Shown one piece after another: positions 29,875 through 53,420 of a stretch of 64,000 bases of DNA. A program made the position numbers and the translations under genes. This DNA is from Salinispira sp. (GTDB lineage: Bacteria > Spirochaetota > Spirochaetia > DSM-27196 > Salinispiraceae), in the NCBI GenBank assembly GCA_965602015.1, contig OZ271918.1:3744001-3808000 (forward strand), read 5' to 3'. The notes beneath the pieces were generated by a model that was not told the DNA's origin, searched no databases, and saw nothing but the letters and a program-made list of their open reading frames with translations. Numbering within the stretch: the first letter of the stretch is position 1; every line of letters starts with the position of its first letter.

Positions 29875-31821
29875 TTAGGCCTTCATGACGATGAGGGTTT
29901 GGTCGTCATGTTGTTTCGCCGAGCCGACGAAGGCGTCGATGTCGTCCCTTATGGCCTGGAGAATATCGCTGGAAGAGCGCTGGGCGTTGTTCACGAAAAT
30001 TGTCTGGAGCCGATCCTCTTCGTACTGTTCTCCCTGGGGGTTCATCGCTTCGATAATTCCGTCGGTGTAGAGCATTATGGCGTCGCCGGGCATGAGCCGG
30101 GTATGCTTGCGCTCATACTTCGCGTCGCGCTCCAACCCGATGGGCAAGCCCTGCGAGTCGATTTTTTCGATTCTCCCGTCTTCCGCTCGTAGAATTACCA
30201 GCGGGTGATGGGCGGCGTTTGAGTATTCCAGTTCATTGGTATTGGGGTCGAAGGTAATGTAGCTCAGGGTGGCAAATCGCTCGATATCGATACGGCCGGC
30301 GATACCCCGGTTTATCCAGCGTACCACCTTCGAGGCGTCGTTAGTCGATCCGGCGACCAGGTGAATAATGGTCCGAATCATGACCATGATCAGCGAAGCC
30401 GGCACTCCCTTTCCGGCGACGTCGCAAATTACCATGGCGAGCTTCCCGGAACGGTTAAGGGTGATAATATCGTAATAGTCTCCCGAGACACCCTTGGCGG
30501 GTTGGCTCCAGGCGGACACCATGTCCCTGATTCTCCGGGGCATCCTGCCGGGCAGGAGTTTTTTCTGAATTTCACCGGCGATGTTTACTTCCCGTTCAAT
30601 TTCCTGCTTCTCCAAAAGTTGGGAATAGCTGTACAGCGAGTCCAGGGTCAGCGAGGCGTACTCGACGAACACCTTACAGCGCTCGAAGTCCAGTTCGCTG
30701 AACAGTTGCCGTTTTGTCCGATGGATAACCGATACGATTCCGAACACCTCGCCGTTTACCACCAGTGGAATGGCGATGAGCGAGGAAATGAACATGGTGT
30801 TTTCTTTTATGTTGGCCAGCATCCGGCCGTCGTCCACAGTATTACGGATGTATACCGGCTCGTTCTGCAGAGCGGCTTCGCCGATTACCGTTTCGCCCAG
30901 CTTTATCGGCGTGTTTTCAAAATAGGTTTCCACCGATGCAATTTTGGTGGCTACGATTTGGGGGAGTTCGTAGGGTGGGGGGAAGTATCCCTCGCGGCAG
31001 GTAAGCTTGAGGGTTTCGTCTTCCGTATCCCTCAGCAGCACGATGCCCGCCTCGGCGTCGGTGTACTGAACGATGGCCTGCATGACGTATTCAAGAACCG
31101 CCTTTACCTCAATCCTCTCGGTCATTGCGGTACCAATGGTCTGCATAAAGTCGAACAGGGAGTTGAGGTACTGGCTGTTGAACTCCTCATTGTCTACCTG
31201 CAGGCTGTAATAATATCTATCGTACTGAAACATGAAGTAAATGGGCGGCACCAGGGTCAGGGGAATGAGAATGTACTCCGCAAAGACCGTCGTCAGGGCC
31301 GCATCGAACAGCAGGGCCACTCTGGCCATCATGAGCAGAACGAATATCATCACCCGGTTCTGGATGACAAAGCCACCCTGGTCGGTGTTGTACTCCGATA
31401 CGTCGTTCATCAGGAAGAAGAACAGGGCAATCATGACCGAAAGGTGGAGATTGAGGGCGATGAGTATAAGGGTGAGGCTGGGAAAAAACTCCCAGAGCAC
31501 CAGCAGCGGAATGGTCACCGCCAGGATGAGAATGGTATAGGTGATGGTGGTTTTCCGGTGTTTTGAGTAGCTGTGAAGCCACCAGAGGTAAATCACCAGA
31601 ATTACCGCGTCGGTGAGGTAGTAGATGCTCGGGGTAAAATAAAGAGCCGCGACGATTTCCCGCACAATGATGAGCAGGGGGATGCGCTTCAGCACGTTGA
31701 TAAACGGGATCTCGTATTTGAGGGAGATCTGATTGGTCATCGCCAACAGGACCGCGGCGATTATTATTCTGAGCCACTCGGGCCCCGAGAGGAATTCACT
31801 TAAAAATGGTATAACTTGCAT
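29875..31821 (-). CDS. Membrane GAF + SpoIIE/PP2C phosphatase (RsbU-like)
   Basis: N-terminal TM helices, GAF, IQKKLLP, VSGDYYD, DVAGKG, YTDGIIEA, DDQT. Confidence 0.93.
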   Translation of the reverse strand: MQVIPFLSEFLSGPEWLRIIIAAVLLAMTNQISLKYEIPFINVLKRIPLLIIVREIVAALYFTPSIYYLTDAVILVIYLWWLHSYSKHRKTTITYTILILAVTIPLLVLWEFFPSLTLILIALNLHLSVMIALFFFLMNDVSEYNTDQGGFVIQNRVMIFVLLMMARVALLFDAALTTVFAEYILIPLTLVPPIYFMFQYDRYYYSLQVDNEEFNSQYLNSLFDFMQTIGTAMTERIEVKAVLEYVMQAIVQYTDAEAGIVLLRDTEDETLKLTCREGYFPPPYELPQIVATKIASVETYFENTPIKLGETVIGEAALQNEPVYIRNTVDDGRMLANIKENTMFISSLIAIPLVVNGEVFGIVSVIHRTKRQLFSELDFERCKVFVEYASLTLDSLYSYSQLLEKQEIEREVNIAGEIQKKLLPGRMPRRIRDMVSAWSQPAKGVSGDYYDIITLNRSGKLAMVICDVAGKGVPASLIMVMIRTIIHLVAGSTNDASKVVRWINRGIAGRIDIERFATLSYITFDPNTNELEYSNAAHHPLVILRAEDGRIEKIDSQGLPIGLERDAKYERKHTRLMPGDAIMLYTDGIIEAMNPQGEQYEEDRLQTIFVNNAQRSSSDILQAIRDDIDAFVGSAKQHDDQTLIVMKA

Positions 31822-43226: not shown

Positions 43227-44234
43227 ATGTTGATCAAAGACATATTTGCCGGATGCATGGACGAAGGGAAAATTCCCTTCAGTTTCGAATTCTTTCCCCC
43301 AAAGACCGCCAGGGGTTGGGAAAAGCTCTACCGAAGCATGAAGGAGCTTCTGCCCCTGGAACCGGCCTATGTTTCGGTCACGTACGGAGCCGGTGGATCC
43401 ACCCGCGACAATACCCACGACCTGGTTGCCCGGATTCACGGCGACGGAATGCCGGTGGTCGCCCATTTGACCTGCCAGGGCAGCAGCCGGGCAGAAATCG
43501 ACAACATTCTAAAGCGATATGACCGGGAGGGCATCCATAATATCCTGGCCCTCCGGGGAGACCCTCCGGCTACCGGCGACAACGCCGTCGGGGGCACATC
43601 CGCCGCCAACAGCTCCCTAAGCAGCGGCGGCCATGGCCAGGCGAGCGCCGGTGATTTTCCCCATGCCGGCGACCTGGTGGCCTATATAAAGGAACGGTTC
43701 CCCCACTTCGGCGTCGGAGTTGCGGGGTTTCCCGAAGGCCATCCGGCTACCCCCAACCGCCTGAGAGAAATGGATTACCTCAAGGCAAAGGTTGACGCCG
43801 GTGCCGACTACATCGTCACTCAGCTCTTTTTTGACAACCGGGATTTCCTGGATTACCGGGAACGCTGCGCCCTGGCGGGCATTAAAATACCCATGATCGC
43901 CGGCCTCATGCCCATTACCAGCATTCGGGGAATGGAGCGGATGGCCGAGCTATCCGGCGGCAGCCGCTTTCCCGCCGACCTGGTCCAACGCTTAAAACGC
44001 GCGGTGAATAATAACGGAGGCAACTGGGGAATTTACGGCGCCCCGGAGAACAACACTCCCGAGGTGACCTCCGCGGTGTGCCGGGTGGGGGAGCATTGGA
44101 CTACCGAACAGATCAGCAATCTGCTCAACCACGGAGTAGCCGGCGTTCATCTGTACACCCTGAACACGTCAACGGCCTCCATCAGCATCATGCAGAACCT
44201 GGGGCTGGCAAGCTATTCGGTGCGGAATGAGTAG
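43227..44234 (+). CDS. metF: 5,10-methylenetetrahydrofolate reductase
   Basis: SFEFFPPK, SVTYGAGG, AHLTC, LALRGDPP, FPEGHP, TQLFFDN, HLYTLN. Confidence 0.95.
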   Translation: MLIKDIFAGCMDEGKIPFSFEFFPPKTARGWEKLYRSMKELLPLEPAYVSVTYGAGGSTRDNTHDLVARIHGDGMPVVAHLTCQGSSRAEIDNILKRYDREGIHNILALRGDPPATGDNAVGGTSAANSSLSSGGHGQASAGDFPHAGDLVAYIKERFPHFGVGVAGFPEGHPATPNRLREMDYLKAKVDAGADYIVTQLFFDNRDFLDYRERCALAGIKIPMIAGLMPITSIRGMERMAELSGGSRFPADLVQRLKRAVNNNGGNWGIYGAPENNTPEVTSAVCRVGEHWTTEQISNLLNHGVAGVHLYTLNTSTASISIMQNLGLASYSVRNE

Positions 44235-44310
44235 TTAGCTCCACACAATCTCTATTTCTCAACCCGGTTTCCCTGTTCAACCCGGGAAAACGCTAAACCT
44301 CTTTTGTAGT

Positions 44311-45750
44311 TTGAGGGAAAAGAGTGAGTTCCTGCGAACGAGTCCTGGCTCCCGCCAGAGTGTCCATGGTCCCAATGAAAAAACCCTCTTTGGAAAGTTT
44401 CGCCCGAATGTCCCCGAGGGAAACCTCACAGAACGGGGAGACAGCGCCACAATCACCAGCACTAAAATCACCATCAACCGGACAGGAACCTACCGCCACT
44501 ACAGCTGGGACCTGTTAAACCGCCTGGAAAACGTCGAAGAGCTCGATGAACACGGCAATCTGGTCGTGATAAAAGAATACGGCTATGATGTGAATAACCT
44601 GAGGATATGGGAGAAAAACCGACACGGCCAAATCACCCATTACGTCTTCGACCAAAAGGGCAACAGAATCGAACGGCACACAGAGGAAAGAAGCGAATAC
44701 TACATATTCAGAAACCTCCGCCACATCGCCAAACGGGTGGTTGACCACAGCACCAACACGGAAAAGACCTACTTCTACGGCACAGACCACCTGGGAAGTA
44801 CCGTACTGATGACCGACGAAGACGGCAACGAAGTCTTCTCAGCAGAAACCACCCCCTTCGGCGACTCGGTATCAGAATTAGGACCCATGGCCGACACAGA
44901 ACACCTCATGTACACCGGCAAGGACCTGGATGAAGATACCGGGCTGTACTACTTTAATGCACGGTGGTATGACCCGGGGACCGGGCGGTTTATAAGCGAG
45001 GATCCGGCGAGGTTTGGGTCGAACTGGTACCGGTATGCAGCGAGCAATCCTCTCAAATACTTCGATCCAACCGGACTGAATGAAGTGAGCTGGGGTACAA
45101 CGATCTTCGATGCAGGGGATTATCACACAGATACCCCTGAAAATGAGAAGTATGGAAATCTCGACGAGACAACGACAGAGGTTGCCACCTATGAGGAAAT
45201 TGCTGAGCAGATCAATCACGTCTCAACTGGTATTTCTGCCCAGGAAACGATTGCACAACAGACAGAGAAACTAGCTGAGCTATTACAACAAGATACCAGC
45301 AGCATGACGTTGGATGAATTTCTTGCCTACCAGCAAGAGTTAGAGGATTTGGCGATGGAGCTGCTCCAAGGAATCCAGGATTATGAGGCAGCGGGATATG
45401 AGCTCCAGGATTTGGCAGAAAGCAACCCTAATGGAAATATCAGATTGGACCCATCAGTTACTAAAAGTGCCGATCCATTTGAGACTTGGTGGGATAAATC
45501 GGATGGTGAGCTACTGACTGAAGCCGAGGCTAAAATACAAAAATGGTTCGGTATTTCAGAAATGGGACTTGGTGGTATTGGGGTTTTTACGACAGCATAT
45601 ACCGCTCCAGCATTATATATCATGGCAGATGGAGCTCATCTTCTTAATGAAGCTTTGAACGGCTATAAAGCAACCCCTGGTCTATTAGCAGTAGACTTTA
45701 TGATCCCCTATATAATGCTGAGTGATTATCCTTATACATCTCCATTTTAA
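44311..45750 (+). CDS. Orphan RHS core fragment + C-terminal toxin domain 1 (5'-truncated; rhs homology starts at 44419)
   Basis: TDHLGS, YTGKDLDEDTGLYYFNARWYDP, DP...NWYRYA..NPLKYFDPTG; GC drop after DPTG. Confidence 0.85.
   Translation: MREKSEFLRTSPGSRQSVHGPNEKTLFGKFRPNVPEGNLTERGDSATITSTKITINRTGTYRHYSWDLLNRLENVEELDEHGNLVVIKEYGYDVNNLRIWEKNRHGQITHYVFDQKGNRIERHTEERSEYYIFRNLRHIAKRVVDHSTNTEKTYFYGTDHLGSTVLMTDEDGNEVFSAETTPFGDSVSELGPMADTEHLMYTGKDLDEDTGLYYFNARWYDPGTGRFISEDPARFGSNWYRYAASNPLKYFDPTGLNEVSWGTTIFDAGDYHTDTPENEKYGNLDETTTEVATYEEIAEQINHVSTGISAQETIAQQTEKLAELLQQDTSSMTLDEFLAYQQELEDLAMELLQGIQDYEAAGYELQDLAESNPNGNIRLDPSVTKSADPFETWWDKSDGELLTEAEAKIQKWFGISEMGLGGIGVFTTAYTAPALYIMADGAHLLNEALNGYKATPGLLAVDFMIPYIMLSDYPYTSPF
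44419..45075 (+). repeat. rhs core duplicated at 50009..50665
   Basis: Constant offset of 5590 bp from ggaaacctcacagaacgg to the DPTG codons. Confidence 0.95.
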
Positions 45751-45762
45751 CGAGGAAGCAAA

Positions 45763-45981
45763 ATGAAAAATGTTTTCGTTATTTTTTTACTTTTTTACAT
45801 TGTATTTTTATTTGGAAATAGCATCCGGCACCTTTTAATTGGTTTGGGTAAAATAAAACATCCTATGTTTGATTCTGATGAAAAGCGTAGGTACATCTTC
45901 CGCAAGGGGATTATCGGGCTCTCTGGTGCAGTTCTATTCGGGACATTTATCATATATGTCGTAATTAGGGTTGTTTTCTGA
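45763..45981 (+). CDS. Putative immunity protein (72 aa, two TM helices)
   Basis: AT-rich small ORF directly after RHS-CT1, with GAGGA SD. Confidence 0.7.
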   Translation: MKNVFVIFLLFYIVFLFGNSIRHLLIGLGKIKHPMFDSDEKRRYIFRKGIIGLSGAVLFGTFIIYVVIRVVF

Positions 45982-46009
45982 TTGAATGACTTTGCAGACA
46001 ATAGTTAAA

Positions 46010-46077
46010 CCCATAAGACTGACTTGAGCTGCGCCGGATCCAATCCCGGCGTCAGCTCCAAGTATGCTTCTTATGGG
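46010..46077. repeat. attC-like imperfect palindrome, copy 1
   Basis: cccataag-actga-cttgagctg-cgccgg...ccggcg-T-cagctc-C-aag-tatgctt-cttatggg; second copy at 51612. Confidence 0.6.
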
Positions 46078-46516
46078 GGTTGAGCCGGCAAACGAGTTCT
46101 TTGAAATACGTCAGTCAGTGACGGACCCATCGAAGAGCATCTTGCTCCCGCTGAGCAAGAACTCTTCTGCTGACCGCTGATGCTTGCAGCAGCCTGCAGA
46201 AGAGAAAAACGTCAGACCACAAAACGCTTGAAGTCCACCCGGCTGCCGTTGAAGTTGACCAGGTAGCCCACCCGGATGCCCGAAAGCCTGAGGTAGTTTA
46301 TGAGCTGGGCTTCCATTGTAGCCTCTCAAATTAAATTGATCAAACCAGCATAGAAAATCTCACAAACAGTTAAACAATCTCTCATTCCACTTAGACCGGA
46401 AATTTTATCTGCCGACAAAAAAAGAGCAATGGTGTTGAAGTTTGCCGACTCCCCATTGCTCTTAAAACCTCACCCCCAAAGGGGGCAAATAAACGTTACT
46501 TATTTGTCGGATAGTT

Positions 46517-47014
46517 TTGGAAAAACTTCAAGCGCTTGGGAAACAGTTCCACTGGAAAAAACCTGAATGTTGTCCCGAGTGTGGAAGCATACGGCTATGG
46601 GGGCACGGCTTCGTTCTTCGGCAGTTTGTCGGGTTTGCCCAAGGACTGTGGATGAAGCGGTATCGATGTCCGGACTGCCATGGGGTTCATACCTGTAGGC
46701 CACAGCAGTTCTTGCCGGGGATGCAATATCCTGTTCAAACTCAAATCTCCAGCCTGGAAGCAAAGCTTGCAGGAAAGCCGTTCCTTCAAACTGTGTCGAG
46801 GCAGATCCAGCAGCATTGGTGGAAGACATTTCTCAACCACTGCCGCCGTAGCGGCAACTGGACTGCCCCACATTCGGTTTTCCTCCGCAGGCAGAGCGAT
46901 GATCAAATACCAGTAACAACCAGGCGAATATACCGTGAGATCTGGTCAGAAGCCTGCGTACCCTACCTGCCTTTTGCGCTGACAGTGAAACCGCGTCCAT
47001 TTAGCCTTGAGTGA
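46517..47014 (+). CDS. IS accessory Zn-finger protein (DUF6431-like)
   Basis: CPECGS..LWGHG...KRYRCPDC..VHT..P..FLP; TTG start uncertain. Confidence 0.7.
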   Translation: MEKLQALGKQFHWKKPECCPECGSIRLWGHGFVLRQFVGFAQGLWMKRYRCPDCHGVHTCRPQQFLPGMQYPVQTQISSLEAKLAGKPFLQTVSRQIQQHWWKTFLNHCRRSGNWTAPHSVFLRRQSDDQIPVTTRRIYREIWSEACVPYLPFALTVKPRPFSLE

Positions 47015-47043
47015 GAAAACGTATCACTCTCAAGGAGGAGAAA

Positions 47044-48327
47044 ATGGACAGAGAAAAGAAAGAAAAGATCGCAGTATTCCGCTTCGGGGTCATCTTTCCG
47101 CTTGTGGAGAAAGACCTACACCAGTATTGGGGAGAGAAAGAGCGAATCCTGCGGGAGCTGGTCAGCAAGGAATGGGAGATTCCCTTTTCAAACCGAAACT
47201 ACATCAGCAAGGCCACCATCCTGACCTGGGTAAAGCGCTACGAAGATGGCGGGCGGAAGATTGAAGCCTTGTTTCCTGAGAATCGCGGCGACAAGGGCCG
47301 GATGAGAAGCATTTCCGATGAACAAATCGATGCGCTCATGCTGCTTCGAAAAGAGCATCCAAAACTCTCCACCCCGCGTCTGGTTGAAATTGCTCAAGGA
47401 AACGGCGTCTTTCCGTCCGGAAAAGAGGTCTCCATGGCCAGCATTTACCGGCTCATGAAGATCCGCAAAGCCCAACGGGTCAAAGTCGAGTCTGACATGA
47501 GGAAGTTCGAGGTACAATTGCCCAACGACCTGTGGCAGTCAGACTGCATGCACGGTCCGAAAGTTCTGCATGGCGGGAAACTGAGAAAGACCTATCTGTT
47601 TGCAATCATTGACGACCATTCAAGGCTCATTACCCATGGCCAGTTCTACCTGGCTGAAACACTGGAAAATTACCTGGACTGCTTATGGACGGCGTTACGC
47701 AAGCGGGGAGTTCCCCGAAAGCTCTATGTCGATAACGGGGCATCATTTAAGGCGCACAGGCTCCAGTTGGGATGTGCTTCGCTGGAAATCGGGCTGCGCT
47801 ATGCACGGCCGTACCGACCCCAGGGAAAGGGCAAGATTGAACGGTTCTTTCGTACCGTACGTAGCCAGTTTATCCCCGAGCTGCCTGATGAACTTCCTCT
47901 GGATGAGATCAACCGGCTGTTTCACCACTACATTGAAAACGGTTATCACCAGAGGATCCATGGCGGTACGGGGCAGAAGCCCCTGGAGCGTTACCTGCAG
48001 GATGCCCATGCCTTGCGAAAAGCGCCGGAGAACTTGCCTGAATACTTTCGAAAACGCGAGGAGCGAACGGTAAACAACGACCGGACGGTGAAACTCGATG
48101 GCCGTTTGTATGAAGCCCCTGCGGGATTGGTTGGCATGAAAGTCGTCCTGCGTTTTGAGAATTACGACCGGATTGAAGTCTTTCTCGAGAATCAGTCAAA
48201 GGGATTCTTAAGGGATCTGGATCAGGGAGTGAACAGCCGCATTAAGCGGGACGGCACGGGTCCGGTCATGCCGTCGGCTTCGGGGGGAGCTCTTTTTGAA
48301 AAGCTGGGCTCAAAGGCAGGTAGCTAA
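47044..48327 (+). CDS. DDE integrase/transposase with Mu-transposase C-terminal-like domain
   Basis: LWQSD, IIDDHSR, LYVDNG, KGKIERFF; AGGAGG SD. Confidence 0.93.
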   Translation: MDREKKEKIAVFRFGVIFPLVEKDLHQYWGEKERILRELVSKEWEIPFSNRNYISKATILTWVKRYEDGGRKIEALFPENRGDKGRMRSISDEQIDALMLLRKEHPKLSTPRLVEIAQGNGVFPSGKEVSMASIYRLMKIRKAQRVKVESDMRKFEVQLPNDLWQSDCMHGPKVLHGGKLRKTYLFAIIDDHSRLITHGQFYLAETLENYLDCLWTALRKRGVPRKLYVDNGASFKAHRLQLGCASLEIGLRYARPYRPQGKGKIERFFRTVRSQFIPELPDELPLDEINRLFHHYIENGYHQRIHGGTGQKPLERYLQDAHALRKAPENLPEYFRKREERTVNNDRTVKLDGRLYEAPAGLVGMKVVLRFENYDRIEVFLENQSKGFLRDLDQGVNSRIKRDGTGPVMPSASGGALFEKLGSKAGS

Positions 48328-49133
48328 TGGATACGCTGCGCCACCACTTTGGATTCCGGCACAACCCGTTCCCGCAGAATGTAGCGGTAAAGGACCTGTA
48401 CCCCTTACCGGCATTGGAACCCCTGCGGCAGCGGGTGTTCTTTGCCCTGGAGCAGAAAGCCATTGCCGTCATCACCGGAGATGTGGGGTCGGGAAAGTCT
48501 ACGTCATTGCGCTATGTCTCAAGCAAATGCCATTCGAGTGAGTATGAACTGATTACCATTGTCGGCGGGAACTTCTCACCCATGGAACTGTACCGGCAGA
48601 TCCTGCTCACTTTCGGCATGAGCTATATGTCGTTCCAGGTATCGATCATGATCTCGAAGATCCGGGAGCTTATTCTGGAAATTGCATCCCGCAATGTCAT
48701 CCCGGTGCTGGTAATCGATGAGGCTCATCTGCTGAAACGGTCAGTGTTTACCCAGCTGCATACCCTTGCTCAGTTTGAATTCGATTCCAAACCGGTCATG
48801 CCGATGATTCTCTGCGGTCAGGATTTCCTGCTCGATCATCTGATGGCTAACTCAGTTCGGCCTCTGGCGTCCCGGGTGCTGGGCAAGAATCATCTGGAGT
48901 CTATTAAGAAGGAGGTGATGGAAGATTACCTGAATCATCACATCACCCTGGCCGGGGGAACAAAGAAAGCATTCAGTGATGAGGCGATCTTTGCCATTCA
49001 TCAGGGATCCGGTGGTCTCTTGCGGAAAGCCAACTCCCTGGCGAAAACGGCTCTCCTTGCCTGCGCCGGAGATGGTGGACAGACTGTTTCTGCAGAACAC
49101 GTCCGGGTCGCTTCCACCGAGATTTTTATGTAA
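48327..49133 (+). CDS. ExeA-like AAA ATPase (transposition helper)
   Basis: FGFRHNPF, Walker A GDVGSGKS, Walker B VIDEAH. Confidence 0.92.
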   Translation: MDTLRHHFGFRHNPFPQNVAVKDLYPLPALEPLRQRVFFALEQKAIAVITGDVGSGKSTSLRYVSSKCHSSEYELITIVGGNFSPMELYRQILLTFGMSYMSFQVSIMISKIRELILEIASRNVIPVLVIDEAHLLKRSVFTQLHTLAQFEFDSKPVMPMILCGQDFLLDHLMANSVRPLASRVLGKNHLESIKKEVMEDYLNHHITLAGGTKKAFSDEAIFAIHQGSGGLLRKANSLAKTALLACAGDGGQTVSAEHVRVASTEIFM

Positions 49134-49852
49134 ATGCTGCCCCTGCCGCGAATGCGGCAGGGGGTACCCTTCGTCAGTTTTACTTGTAAAATTGTTTGTC
49201 TGTACGTGCGAGGGTTAGGCTAATTTAATGTGCGAAGCTACACCATAACAGCCGTGAGCTTTGAAACGCTCTTGAGCTCGAGAATGACCTTGCCCTCGAC
49301 CACCAGGTCGGCAATGTATGCTCCGGCAAGCTCCCCTTTGTAATACACCGGATAGACCTTCTGCTGTTCCACAGTGAGATTTAACCTCCGGCACTCAATA
49401 ACCAGAGCCCCCTCGTACGCGCTTTCCAAAAGCCCGGGACCCAGGATGTTGTGCACCGAATACAACGCTCCCACCACCGTGTAGGACAGTTCCTTGAAAA
49501 GATACTCAGCCATGCTGACCTCCTTTTTTCAGGAGGCAGTCTCGAAGCGACGAGTGGTCAACGCCCCTGAGCGAAGCGCGGCTTGACCGCGAGGAGCGGA
49601 GAGATACACTTGAGAAAACCGGAGGAAGCCAGACAGCATAGCCCAAGGCATAGGGAAGAAGGCGCGAATCCTCGCGCCCCATTCATTTCTTTCTTTCAAC
49701 ATACCGTCAGCAGAAAAATCCCTTTTGCAAAACCGCCCCGGTCACCAAACCAAATCCGTGATTATTGGTGCTGATACGTGGTAGACCCCAACTCCCTGAT
49801 ACGTGGCTTTCTCTCATCCCCCCGACTTTAGAAAATTCTCACCGCCGAACTT

Positions 49853-51202
49853 ATGGGCCGCAACGAGTTCTACAACTACACCCCCGACGGCAACCGCTCC
49901 ATGAGAAACATCCTCGCCGGCAGCATGCAGAGTGAACAATACCAGTACTACCCCAACTCAGACCTGCTCCAATACGACGGAACCTACTACTATGCCTATG
50001 ATGAGAACGGAAACCTCACAGAACGGGGAGACAGCGCCACAATCACCGGCACTAAAATCACCATCAACCGGACAGGAACCTACCGCCACTACAGCTGGGA
50101 CCTGTTAAACCGCCTTGAGACCGTCGAAGAGCTCGATGAACACGGCAATCTGGAAGTAATAAAAGAATACGGCTATGATGTGAATAACCTGAGGATATGG
50201 GAGAAAAACCGACACGGCCAAATCACCCATTACGTCTTCGACCACAAGGGCAACAGAATCGAACGGCACACAGACGAAAAGAGCGAATACTACATCTTCA
50301 GAAATCTCCGCCACATCGCCAAACGGGTGGTAGACCACAGCACAAACACCGAAAAGACCTACTTCTACGGCACAGACCACCTGGGAAGCACCGTGCTGAT
50401 GACAGACGAAGAAGGCAACGAAGTCTTCTCCGGAGAAACCACCCCCTTCGGCGACTCAGTCTCTGAGTCAGGAGCCATGGCCGACACAGAACACCTCATG
50501 TACACCGGCAAGGACCTGGATGAAGATACCGGGCTGTACTACTTTAATGCGCGCTGGTATGACCCAACGGTGGGGAGGTTTATAAGCGAGGATCCGGCGA
50601 GGTTTGGTTCGAACTGGTACCGGTATGCCTCGCATAATCCGTTGAAGTACTCTGATCCGACAGGATTATGGGATTTTAATGCCGCATTAGGATTAGGGGG
50701 GGCTCTACAGATCCACATTGGTAATAATGACGGGAAATTTCAATTTGGGTTTAAAGTAGGCCTAGGCTTAGGTGCGCAAGTAAGTTTTTCTGCTCAAAAT
50801 CGAACTGTCAATCAGGCAGTTGGGACTACGCTATCTGGTTCAGTTGAGGCTGCAACGGAACTGGAAGTGGCTGGACCAGGTGCGGATATATCAATTCAGG
50901 TTTCTGGTGTCTTAGATTCAGATTTTAATATTGAGAATACATCAACCGCAGAAATGTCTTTTTCGGACCCCGCTACTGGGATGACAGGAAGTGTTTCAGT
51001 GGATTCGGATGGCATAATAGAGACTGAATTGGAACCCACTAATCTTTCATTTGGTGCGGGAGCACTTATTTTTGTCGGTTTCGGTGTAGATACCACGGTT
51101 GGAGAGGATTCTCTTCCCAAATCAAATCCTAAAATTGACCCTTCCGCTCCAGTTTTTGAATTCGACGTGAATGAAGATCCATTGGAAGAAGGAAATTTAT
51201 GA
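49853..51202 (+). CDS. Orphan RHS core fragment + C-terminal toxin domain 2
   Basis: YD-type repeats, the same core as copy 1, NPLKYSDPTG, then an unrelated Gly-rich AT-richer tip. Confidence 0.88.
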   Translation: MGRNEFYNYTPDGNRSMRNILAGSMQSEQYQYYPNSDLLQYDGTYYYAYDENGNLTERGDSATITGTKITINRTGTYRHYSWDLLNRLETVEELDEHGNLEVIKEYGYDVNNLRIWEKNRHGQITHYVFDHKGNRIERHTDEKSEYYIFRNLRHIAKRVVDHSTNTEKTYFYGTDHLGSTVLMTDEEGNEVFSGETTPFGDSVSESGAMADTEHLMYTGKDLDEDTGLYYFNARWYDPTVGRFISEDPARFGSNWYRYASHNPLKYSDPTGLWDFNAALGLGGALQIHIGNNDGKFQFGFKVGLGLGAQVSFSAQNRTVNQAVGTTLSGSVEAATELEVAGPGADISIQVSGVLDSDFNIENTSTAEMSFSDPATGMTGSVSVDSDGIIETELEPTNLSFGAGALIFVGFGVDTTVGEDSLPKSNPKIDPSAPVFEFDVNEDPLEEGNL

Positions 51203-51597
51203 AAATTACGAGGAAAAATCTTCGCCTATTAATTATTTTTGTAATTCTTTTAGTTGGTGTTGCGGTTATGCGATTATTCTTTATACAGGTAAAAAGTGAT
51301 TTAGAACCGTACATGACTGAAAACGCTGAAGTTACCGCCTATCTTAAAGATTTTTTTATTATGAATTTTCCAGATGTTGAAATACTAGAGATTGATTTTA
51401 TGGATGAAAAAAGCAAAGTTAATAATCGTCAAAATGTGATTCGCGTGATTTCTGAGTATGGAGTGAAAGCAAAAATCCAAAGTTATTCTTTTTTTGTCGA
51501 ATGGACACAAACTGACCACAACACCAACATAGAAAAAATTCAGGTTCTGAGAGAGAATGAATATATAGAACTATACGTTGATCAAGCATCTCAATAA
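51199..51597 (+). CDS. Putative immunity protein (N-terminal membrane anchor)
   Basis: 4-bp overlap with RHS-CT2; very AT-rich; single TM helix. Confidence 0.7.
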   Translation: MKITRKNLRLLIIFVILLVGVAVMRLFFIQVKSDLEPYMTENAEVTAYLKDFFIMNFPDVEILEIDFMDEKSKVNNRQNVIRVISEYGVKAKIQSYSFFVEWTQTDHNTNIEKIQVLRENEYIELYVDQASQ

Positions 51598-51611
51598 GAG
51601 TTAGGTTTTCA

Positions 51612-52526
51612 CCCCATAAGACCCGACTTGAGCTGCGCCGGATCCAATCCCGGCGTCAACTCCAAGTATGCTTCTTATGGGGGTTGAGCCGGCAAACGAG
51701 TTCTTTGAAATACGTCAGTCAGTGACGGACCCATCGAAGAACATCTTGCTCCCGCTGAGCAAGAACTCTTCTGCTGACCGCTGATGCTTGCAGCAGCCTG
51801 CAGAAGATAAAAACTTCACACTACAAAACGCTTGAAGTCGACCCGGCTGCCGTTGAAGTTTACCAGGTAGCCCACCCGGATGCCCGAAAGCCTGAGGTAG
51901 TTTATGAGCTGGGCTTCCATAACTGGAGTGAGCTTGGAAACACTTTTTAGTTCGAGGATGAGCTTTCCTTCAATTACCAGGTCTGCAATGTACGCCCCGG
52001 CAAGCTCGCCTTTGTAGTACACCGGATACACCTTCTGCTGTTCCACCGCCAGATTCAGCCTGCGACACTCAATAACCAGCGCACCCTCGTACGCGCTTTC
52101 CAAAAGCCCGGGACCCAGGATGTTGTGCACCGAATACAACGCTCCCACCACCGTGTAGGACAGTTCCTTGAAAAGATACTCAGCCATGCTGACCTCCTAT
52201 GGTTGCATAGGCGAGCAGGCAGCTTTGCTGCCGACCAGCCTTTTTTCAGGAGGCAGTCTCGAAGCGACGAGTGGTCAACGCCCCTGAGCGAAACGCGGCT
52301 TGACCGCGAGGAGCGGAGAGATACACTTGAGAAAACCGGAGGAAGCCAGACAGCATAGCCCAAGGCATAGGGAAGAAGGCGAGAATCCTCGCGCCTCATT
52401 CTTTCCTTTCTTACAACATACCATCAGCAGAGAAATCCCTTTTACAAAACTGCCCCGGTCACCAAACCAAATCCGTGAATATTGGTGCTGATACGTGGTA
52501 CACCCCAACTCCCTGATACGTGGCTT
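51612..52526. repeat. ~915-bp repeated unit (attC-like hairpin + GxxExxY + structured leader); other copy 46010..49809 minus the IS
   Basis: Homology starts at cccataag and ends at ctgatacgtggctt in both copies. Confidence 0.93.
51816..52187 (-). CDS. GxxExxY protein (PD-(D/E)XK nuclease-like)
   Basis: LGPGLLESAYE, YIADLVIEGKLILELKSV, QLINYL, GYLVNF; AGGAGG SD. Confidence 0.93.
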   Translation of the reverse strand: MAEYLFKELSYTVVGALYSVHNILGPGLLESAYEGALVIECRRLNLAVEQQKVYPVYYKGELAGAYIADLVIEGKLILELKSVSKLTPVMEAQLINYLRLSGIRVGYLVNFNGSRVDFKRFVV

Positions 52527-52991
52527 ACCAAGCTCATCGCTGCTGACCAAAAATCTACCATCTCGGCCAACACCAATCGGCAATGATCATTGGAGAAGCC
52601 GGAAGCGAATCGGCAAAAAGAATGGCAGGATCAGTGAAAATACAAGTCGGAAATTTTCGCCTCTACAAAATAATTCCATGAGTCCGAATAAAAGCAAGTA
52701 TCTGCTTGCGAGAATACAGAAGTTGATCCGTTTATTAATGACTATAATAAATATCTGCAATCTGCGTTTTTTGTGGTTCATTTTGATCACTGTTCTCTTC
52801 GCATTTGATAGAGTGAATATCTCGATTCGATTTACAGTACACAAGTGTTGTGTATTCAAATTGACGGTATAGTGAATAATGAGATGGCTTATCTTCCCAA
52901 TGATTTAGAGAGCAGAACACAAACCGTCTCCGCTGGGTCGGTAATAGCAAATGACGGCCTGCGTTAAAAATCCAGATCGGTTGAATATCGG

Positions 52992-53420
52992 CTAATAATC
53001 CCGCCCCAGCCTCCGGTACAAAAAAAACCCGCCGACGGCCAGAGCAATGAGGGCCAGAATGTACAGGGCATAAACCGACAGGACCAGGGTCCACTGCCAG
53101 CCGCCGGGCTCGGTGTCGCCGTGGGCCAGGCCGGTAAGAGTCGCAAGCAGCTGCATAAGCGGCAGAGCCGCAACCGCCGTTGCGGCGGCGGCGATGATCC
53201 AGGCCCTCATCTGTCCGCCCACTGCCGCGGCGATCAGCAAAAGCACGGCCCCCGCCAGTTCAACAAAAAACAGTTCGCCGGGCATGAGCCAGTCGAAAAG
53301 GAAGCGGCCTCGGCTGACGCTCACAATTGCCCCGAGAAGGAAAGGGGCAAGCAAGGGAAGCATTACCACAATGCCGCCACCCAGTGCCAGGGCGCGGGCG
53401 GTTTTGCGCTTCTTGTTCAT
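52992..53420 (-). CDS. Hypothetical membrane protein (about 4 TM helices)
   Basis: Hydrophobic ORF with host-like GC; start taken at MNKKRK. Confidence 0.7.
   Translation of the reverse strand: MNKKRKTARALALGGGIVVMLPLLAPFLLGAIVSVSRGRFLFDWLMPGELFFVELAGAVLLLIAAAVGGQMRAWIIAAAATAVAALPLMQLLATLTGLAHGDTEPGGWQWTLVLSVYALYILALIALAVGGFFLYRRLGRDY

Follow-up and report, generated by a model that had tools for sequence, protein, structure and literature searches.

Arrays of orphan Rhs toxin tips in the genome of a Salinispira sp. consist of modules that start at the repeat arm of a GxxExxY nuclease element and end in a hairpin whose anatomy marks it as derived from an integron attC site. We find that this arm is a fixed end joined to variable positions of its target genes, the 3′ part of which is duplicated; gene fragments at many positions following the GxxExxY arm are the new point of this work. 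The array under study lies at 44,311–52,526 of a 64,000-nt window (GCA_965602015.1, contig OZ271918.1, positions 3,744,001–3,808,000, forward strand), and coordinates below are window positions unless prefixed with C1. In the displacement model for orphan Rhs tips, core, tip and ‘any intervening genes’ form a circle that returns to the chromosome through a single crossover; the origin of the first circle is left open (PMC2935791). The model needs a circular intermediate, for which the arrays offer two candidates, the repeat arm with its nuclease and the attC-derived site. Natural, lineage-specific versions of the altered crossover base of that site, if linked to toxin arrays, would amount to an orthogonal integron channel in nature, and a part in making circles would be a first function for the widespread GxxExxY family. 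Our favoured reading, to which we give a chance just short of even, is that these are orphan Rhs tip arrays made by C-terminal displacement, in which the first circles probably come from the GxxExxY arm and are then spread by homologous recombination.

A fixed repeat arm joined to gene fragments

In the genome of the window (G000; G001 and G002 are two congeneric genomes, other G codes denote genomes of relatives, and L codes loci), the upstream arm lies about 280 nt from the GxxExxY gene, with a palindromic leader between them. Arm heptamers occur at 5.6 versus 1.5 per kb in relatives, and outside the spirochaetes the gene stands between two inverted arms of short tandem repeats (six of the ten loci printed). 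Sixteen of 26 distinct arm ends run into a fragment of rhs, of a toxin-like gene or of PFOR; for four of the 16, the best match is a self-match. The junctions fall at residues 1677, 1765 and 1891 of one full-length Rhs protein, at residues 1480–1641 of another and at residues 464 and 597 of a third open reading frame. In G149, a 20-kb island lies downstream of a full 1,180-amino-acid PFOR gene and closes with GxxExxY, the arm and a copy of the PFOR 3′ part, which is 90.5% identical over 687 nt and extends beyond the stop codon. Locus L086 holds two repeats of arm plus gapA fragment, the full gene being absent from the locus; PFOR and gapA are our own presumed labels for these genes. The island at the PFOR 3′ end (L203; G149 C1:14-30 kb) is defence-like, with two GxxExxY genes, restriction–modification genes and other candidates.

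The GxxExxY protein of the window matches TIGR04256 at 133.6 bits (cut-off 35) and also PF13366, and its gene is the only one within the unit. The predicted fold is confident (predicted local distance difference test, pLDDT, 95), and the structures closest to this predicted fold are those of Cas4 SSO0001, lambda exonuclease and Hjc, at template-modelling scores of about 0.5. D69 and K81 are invariant, and E79 nearly so, in 26 GxxExxY sequences (the alignment leaves out three loci: L087, which has stops, L098 and L105). Across the six intact copies in G000, 40 codons vary silently and eight with a residue change.

The slot that this gene occupies also accepts other cargo. In G002, where hairpin and arm are the same, Rpn or hicAB takes this place and the neighbours are toxin-like genes other than rhs; the alternatives comprise HicAB, a HigB/HigA-type pair and YhgA/Rpn, and further pairs that we take, from their sequence, to be BrnT/BrnA-like and RelE-like. 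A 30-kb array in this congener (C1:1016-1046 kb; L122, L028) carries fragments of toxin-like genes other than rhs, some of which match M23 peptidase weakly, together with lipoprotein-like downstream genes and Rpn or hicAB as cargo. A first-pass annotation of the window had proposed a test of GxxExxY–rhs co-occurrence across Spirochaetia, and saw in the unit either a small mobile element targeting the ends of rhs modules or part of a system that would cut and recombine toxin tips. An rhs core is present in only five of 40 relatives' loci; specificity for rhs fell away, and we rejected GxxExxY as an rhs-specific targeting element. One genome carries at least nine stand-alone GxxExxY genes at unrelated loci (L088-L092, L103, L106, L107, L109), with near-palindromic leaders and no rhs nearby.

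An altered attC at the module end

The attC-like hairpin described at first pass holds in detail. Both window hairpins fold far better than shuffled sequences (z −3.5 to −5.5) and have the L box in common with the integron sites of this genome, as well as both extrahelical bases. Along the + strand, AA plus one base is followed by a spacer, the L box and a variable stem, and the far arm carries two unpaired bases, the partner base and TT. The arm across from the AA triplet carries the two extrahelical bases, spaced by 7 nt, at positions that belonged to the search pattern. In described attC sites, they lie on the arm opposite the AAC triplet of the recombining strand (G16 and T23 in attCaadA7; PMC5027507), and the window + strand shows the anatomy of this recombining (bottom) strand. 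The L box matches that of attC sites next to the integrase in the same genomes and resembles that of a class 1 site from a plasmid, and the R-to-L spacing on the cut side is 6–7 nt (6 in canonical sites; 7 in the class 1 site in L188).

Other features depart from the canonical site. The crossover triplet is AAG/CTT, not AAC/GTT, in all eight G000 copies, the R′′-side spacing in G000 is 8 nt as against 6 nt in 14 of 14 canonical sites, and two copies are altered in the R box. A covariance model trained on nothing but 14 canonical sites gives the two hairpins its two highest ranks in the 64-kb window and aligns their R and L boxes in register; the scores are weak, at 17.2 bits (E 0.054) and 15.7 bits (E 0.13), as against 65.5 bits for a canonical attC, and with default filters it recovered no hairpin in eight loci and missed class 1 sites too. 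The model also gave a weak score, on both strands, to a short palindrome at 29882-29912. The array borders do not coincide with the crossover: those in G000 end inside rhs or at the arm, and the G002 array opens mid-hairpin. We rejected the whole unit as a single cassette because its arm end has no sequence that would pair with the R box.

The hairpins occur as two or more sites with no integrase adjacent; IntI is encoded elsewhere in the genome, at C1:1742714 (TIGR02249, 380 bits; cut-off 265), and canonical attC sites are present. A search for PF00589 recombinases gave five matches in G000, none near any of the arrays. The integron at C1:1716-1744 kb (L024-L026) is complete, and its long canonical attC sites number at least 13; a further 10 such sites, with no integrase near, cluster at C1:3445-3455 kb.

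The core hairpin pattern matches 18 of 401 genomes of the class, against nine genomes with one match each for a reversed control. Three of the 18 were judged to be chance and one stands at a contig edge; in the 14 with readable true hairpins, the hairpin lies beside rhs or other toxin-like modules in ten and not in four. The same layout recurs in other Spirochaetia families. The exact G000 stem pattern was found in none of five relatives, and the family surfaced with looser patterns only; a loose pattern run on 301 genomes of the phylum returned mostly non-palindromic chance matches and added nothing, and one narrow pattern for the core found none in viral contigs. In G156 (L182-L184), three copies of the core, whose R boxes are degenerate, stand between housekeeping genes and resemble REP-type repeats.

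The crossover base varies by lineage, being AAG/CTT in families f1 and f46 and mostly AAT/ATT in family f20; AAC/GTT is seen at two sites of G164 and, away from rhs, in G289 and G325. The G325 site follows what we take, from the sequence, to be a toxin–antitoxin-like pair. The crossover pair and the next two outward pairs are paired in 21 of 21 hairpins, with four, two and two pair types, respectively, in a set whose core and AA/TT register were imposed by the search pattern and whose related genomes are not independent. These 21 were chosen as representatives of 39 scored hairpins, after exclusion of chance matches, the contig-edge match, the degenerate G156 and G319 sites, an intron-split site and near-duplicates. 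The paired changes point to an attC-derived site that is kept under structural selection. The first crossover base need only be the same in both partner sites, and mutagenesis showed that it can re-key integron specificity (PMC2811028).

IntI scores above the cut-off in all seven toxin-linked genomes tested (of ten), a rate given without a baseline; it is also present in G014, where the pattern gave no hairpin, and a profile search did not find it in G319 or G325. In G133, a group II intron lies within the R′′ box of one toxin-linked hairpin, on the strand used by group IIC-attC introns (PMC3001079). Its top reverse transcriptase match and both its end sequences correspond to introns of class 1 integrons; it sits one nucleotide away from where those introns insert, and equal scores are reached by further introns from plasmids, of unchecked context. 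A group II intron at L172:10215-14047, inserted in the variant attC, encloses a second reverse transcriptase gene and is likely a twintron. The orientation of the hairpin relative to rhs is reversed in f46.

Three arrays and the layout of the window

By the terms of the first-pass annotation, its reading would fall if the window held the only two copies of the unit and a single tandem duplication with later tip replacement explained them. A genome-wide search instead gives three arrays in G000 (C1:1922.9-1938.3 kb, C1:3338.7-3349.9 kb and the window), with eight hairpins, seven GxxExxY copies (six intact and one split), seven tips and seven TIGR03696 matches in total. One tandem duplication is insufficient, given eight hairpins in three arrays, mosaic cores and the recurrence of the layout in other families. 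One stand-alone GxxExxY pseudogene lies outside the arrays (C1:1270120).

At all three sites, the genes flanking the array directly neighbour each other in G001 and G002; the sites being empty in both congeners, the arrays are insertions in the G000 lineage. They start at the same rhs codon (window 44419; C1:1922868; C1:3349903), and 5–6 nt beyond it are also common to two of them. Each starts just after a housekeeping gene: metF (PF02219), or what we take, from the sequence, to be purD and a rhodanese gene. The window array is flanked by metF on one side and a membrane-protein gene on the other. The spacers vary: GxxExxY is missing from the copy at C1:1937984, one spacer holds a HigB/HigA-type pair between hairpin and GxxExxY, hicB stands at one array end, and the second array holds a PIN-domain pair with a canonical attC. 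Contigs from one sequenced sample over two of the arrays, which cannot show rare circles, contain only joints that other genome copies explain.

The seven cores are 86–97% identical and end in DPxG, and the seven tips are all different. Both window cores score 77–78 bits against TIGR03696 (cut-off 32.5), and their GC content is 52–53% as against 43–44% for the tips. Five of the seven tips share their first half and diverge thereafter; one tip, outside the window, is NlpC/P60. The window tips match no Pfam or NCBIfam family, and their Atlas matches are all under 0.9. We regard the tips as putative toxins and the genes downstream of them as putative immunity genes. In the cores, 776 of 1,596 informative site pairs fail the four-gamete test, a count made with no control and to which recurrent mutation may contribute. 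The core fragments also differ in length, with three start points in G000 and many in relatives. Among the seven TIGR03696 matches of G000, the longest frame is 549 amino acids, and no full-length rhs parent was found: two full-length Rhs proteins of relatives, searched on this genome, match the orphan cores alone. In the relative G133, an intact rhs gene stands upstream of the array. Full-length spirochaete Rhs proteins (L117:5045-11893, L177:4404-10505) have, by eye, a signal peptide-like N-terminal start, which would suggest export without type VI secretion.

Table 1. Features of the array, in window coordinates.
Feature	Position	Strand	Remarks
rhs core fragment 1	44419..45075	+	Ends at DPxG motif; TIGR03696 76.6 bits
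Variable tip 1, putative toxin	45076..45750	+	44% GC; second half unique
Putative immunity gene 1, 72 amino acids	45763..45981	+	34% GC; role from position and GC only; unique in genome
Variant attC 1	46010..46077	+	Predicted crossover 46016/46017; triplet AAG/CTT
GxxExxY copy 1, 3′ part	46212..46316	-	Split by insertion sequence (IS)
IS with three open reading frames	46317..49243	+	DUF6431, DDE transposase, AAA ATPase; 3-bp target duplication
GxxExxY copy 1, 5′ part	49244..49513	-	
Leader and outward-facing repeat arm of GxxExxY element 1	49514..49809		
rhs core fragment 2	49853..50668	+	TIGR03696 78 bits
Variable tip 2, putative toxin	50669..51202	+	43% GC; unique in genome
Putative immunity gene 2, 132 amino acids	51199..51597	+	31% GC; role from position and GC only
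Variant attC 2	51613..51681	+	Predicted crossover 51619/51620; triplet AAG/CTT
Possible remnant of downstream arm of GxxExxY element	51777..51785		One repeat unit; weak
GxxExxY, intact, 123 amino acids	51816..52187	-	PD-(D/E)XK fold (predicted); D69, E79, K81 conserved
43-nt insert	52198..52240		Unit of tandem repeat family
Imperfect inverted repeat preceding GxxExxY start	52241..52345		Layout common to relatives
Outward-facing repeat arm, ATCCGTG-type units	52469..52526	+	Fixed end joined to gene fragments
Decayed start of third, longer rhs fragment	52527..52620	+	Matches junction at G000 C1:1925642

The repeated unit is real: its two window copies align in three blocks of 97%, 89% and 96% identity. 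Its description as about 915 bp with sharp, identical borders does not stand, however, and it is a composite of two parts that are also found apart. It is not sharply bounded: GxxExxY is missing from one copy, a HigB/HigA-type pair occurs in another, hicB stands at one end, and the arm meets rhs at two different positions. The rhs homology begins at 44419, not at the 44311 first claimed. Stop-to-stem gaps behind the putative immunity genes measure 28 and 15 nt, close to the proposed 14–28 bp. About 45 degenerate nt separate the arm of element 1 from rhs fragment 2. As to the structured leader, an inverted repeat by the start codon is visible by eye, but the last 100 nt fold like shuffled sequences (z 0.6 and −0.1). 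A sigma-70-like match at 52300-52327 points away from GxxExxY (one found, 0.6 expected by chance). Rfam has no match in 44200-53000 at E values up to 1, and a terminator scan gave no call at the hairpin and four weak ones elsewhere on the minus strand.

The 43-nt insert is carried by unit 2 and absent from unit 1; its repeat unit stands in tandem about eight times at G000 C1:1800541-1800836 and has matches in many Spirochaetia genomes. The IS does interrupt the array as first noted, over 2,927 bp, and is a late insertion unrelated to it. Five copies in the genome, that of the window included, are 100% identical, indicating recent activity, and a sixth is 95% identical. It ends in TG...CA, and one copy adjoins an attC remnant.

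Mechanism, alternatives and known systems

In the reading that we favour, the outward arm would be cut, presumably by GxxExxY, and joined to an upstream position inside rhs, releasing a circle of arm, rhs 3′ part, tip, immunity gene, attC, cargo and GxxExxY. A single crossover in the shared rhs part would then insert the circle and displace the old tip downstream (after PMC2935791), so that the spacer is repeated once per module. Homologous recombination in core and spacer would keep swapping tips and cargo; the mosaic copies are seen directly, and the mechanism is our suggestion. A fixed end, variable upstream joints and a duplicated 3′ part of the target together recall ISCR elements, and we therefore take the arm to be where the first circle would close. 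By the rule for the first crossover base (PMC2811028), its alteration would permit IntI to recombine these sites with like sites and poorly with ordinary attC. As no full-length rhs gene was found in this genome, its arrays would act as an immunity bank and as tip donors to other strains.

Several points weigh against this reading. Cutting by GxxExxY and the resulting circles are proposed from the junctions; neither these nor any rearrangement were observed. Only five of 23 spirochaete GxxExxY loci show an arm–fragment joint, the rest abutting intergenic DNA or intact genes, and the downstream arm in the window amounts to at most one repeat unit. Since G002 has the arm with Rpn or hicAB in the slot, the nuclease would need to act in trans; the single full-length GxxExxY match of that genome is located elsewhere. 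A 123-amino-acid nuclease with no ligase or DNA-binding partner domain would seem a thin candidate for joining. The array ends do not match the attC crossover, arrival at three sites lacking a full-length rhs is left unaccounted for by the model, and the shared left end of the three arrays is accounted for by none of the four readings.

An unlikely though not negligible alternative treats the parts as passive hitchhikers. The hairpin would be an attC relic that, along with a selfish GxxExxY element, landed once behind an immunity gene; homologous recombination alone would then have copied both with each module, as ‘any intervening genes’ (PMC2935791). They would persist as homology anchors, with the hairpin perhaps acting as an RNA structure between convergent genes. 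This requires no new enzyme activity and suits the array ends off the crossover (inside rhs in G000, mid-hairpin in G002), the freely varying slot, the hairpin scores of 15.7–17.2 bits against 65.5 for canonical sites and the changed R box in two copies. One founder, however, cannot yield many arm-to-rhs junctions or the PFOR and gapA cases, and a crossover region paired in 21 of 21 hairpins, across several families and beside unrelated toxin-like genes, points to selection on the fold. The restrained GxxExxY toxin of another account, which we think very unlikely, would have no junction role: held in check by a folded leader RNA, it would act as addiction cargo that stabilizes the array against deletion. 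HicAB, the HigB/HigA-type pair and YhgA/Rpn in the same slot fit such a role, as does the leader inverted repeat, which overlies the ribosome-binding site; Rpn has been described as a family of toxic defence proteins that carry internal antitoxins (PMC10400941; Rpn is also treated in PMC5350276). Copies have nevertheless been lost or broken at no visible cost (split by the IS in the window, deleted at C1:1937984, a pseudogene at C1:1270120), and the arms that accompany the family in other phyla stay unexplained.

It is also conceivable, but quite improbable, that the hairpins delimit private-key integron cassettes, hairpin-to-hairpin stretches that IntI would excise and reorder in trans, the changed base separating them from the ordinary array. 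The L box and two unpaired bases are as in integrase-adjacent sites and the class 1 site (PMC5027507), the varying base is the one that needs only to match between partners (PMC2811028), IntI is found in seven of seven toxin-linked genomes tested, the G133 intron in the R′′ box resembles integron attC introns, and the shared sequence stops 5–8 nt left of the predicted cut. Yet the arrays end off crossovers and no attI-like site was seen, the R′′-side spacing is 8 nt rather than 6 nt, the G133 intron is 1 nt off with other plasmid introns scoring equally, the f46 hairpin is reversed relative to rhs, and the arm junctions are left unexplained. A combination of two enzymes, in which a Cas4-like nuclease performs one-ended capture of 3′ ends (of rhs, PFOR and gapA) to give circles and keyed attC sites form an integrase channel sealed from the cassette pool, strikes us as improbable. 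The literature that we searched, supplements apart, contains no description of attC-like sites or of GxxExxY in Rhs arrays, and the papers found on GxxExxY include, by title, none on its function.

Returning to displacement by circles, the closest precedent is the Rhs displacement array (PMC2935791), which likewise strings together core pieces of differing length, tips of low GC and small genes behind them; here, in contrast, the modules end in an attC-derived hairpin and start at a repeat arm, and no intact parent was found in the genome. Effector displacement has been likened to integrons before, with no evidence for an integrase found (PMC5361080). With integron attC sites and clusters of attC sites lacking integrases (CALINs), the arrays share clustered imperfect hairpins with an R box, unpaired spacer, L box and two extrahelical bases (PMC4889954, PMC5027507, PMC2811028), as well as, for CALINs, the absence of a nearby integrase, IntI elsewhere and toxin–antitoxin cargo (PMC4889954). 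They differ in the AAG/CTT triplet (AAT/ATT in f20), in an R′′-side spacing 2 nt longer, in borders off the crossover and in a toxin operon that would lie inverted in the cassette; as the triplet, spacing and borders all disagree, we do not class them as CALINs. The orphan immunity clusters of Bacteroidales, rAID-1 (10.1101/471110), are similar in having low-GC putative immunity genes with integron-like repeats between them, whereas here there is no adjacent XerD-like recombinase, toxin core and tip are kept, and the spacer holds an antisense gene. ISCR/IS91 elements in complex class 1 integrons (PMC7707992) share one fixed end, variable adjacent DNA and a duplicated target segment, and their circle, rescued by homologous recombination in a repeatable process, is likened to the one proposed here. 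Unlike ISCR, the unit has no IS91-type transposase, the candidate enzyme being a 123-amino-acid PD-(D/E)XK nuclease whose family elsewhere stands between inverted arms.

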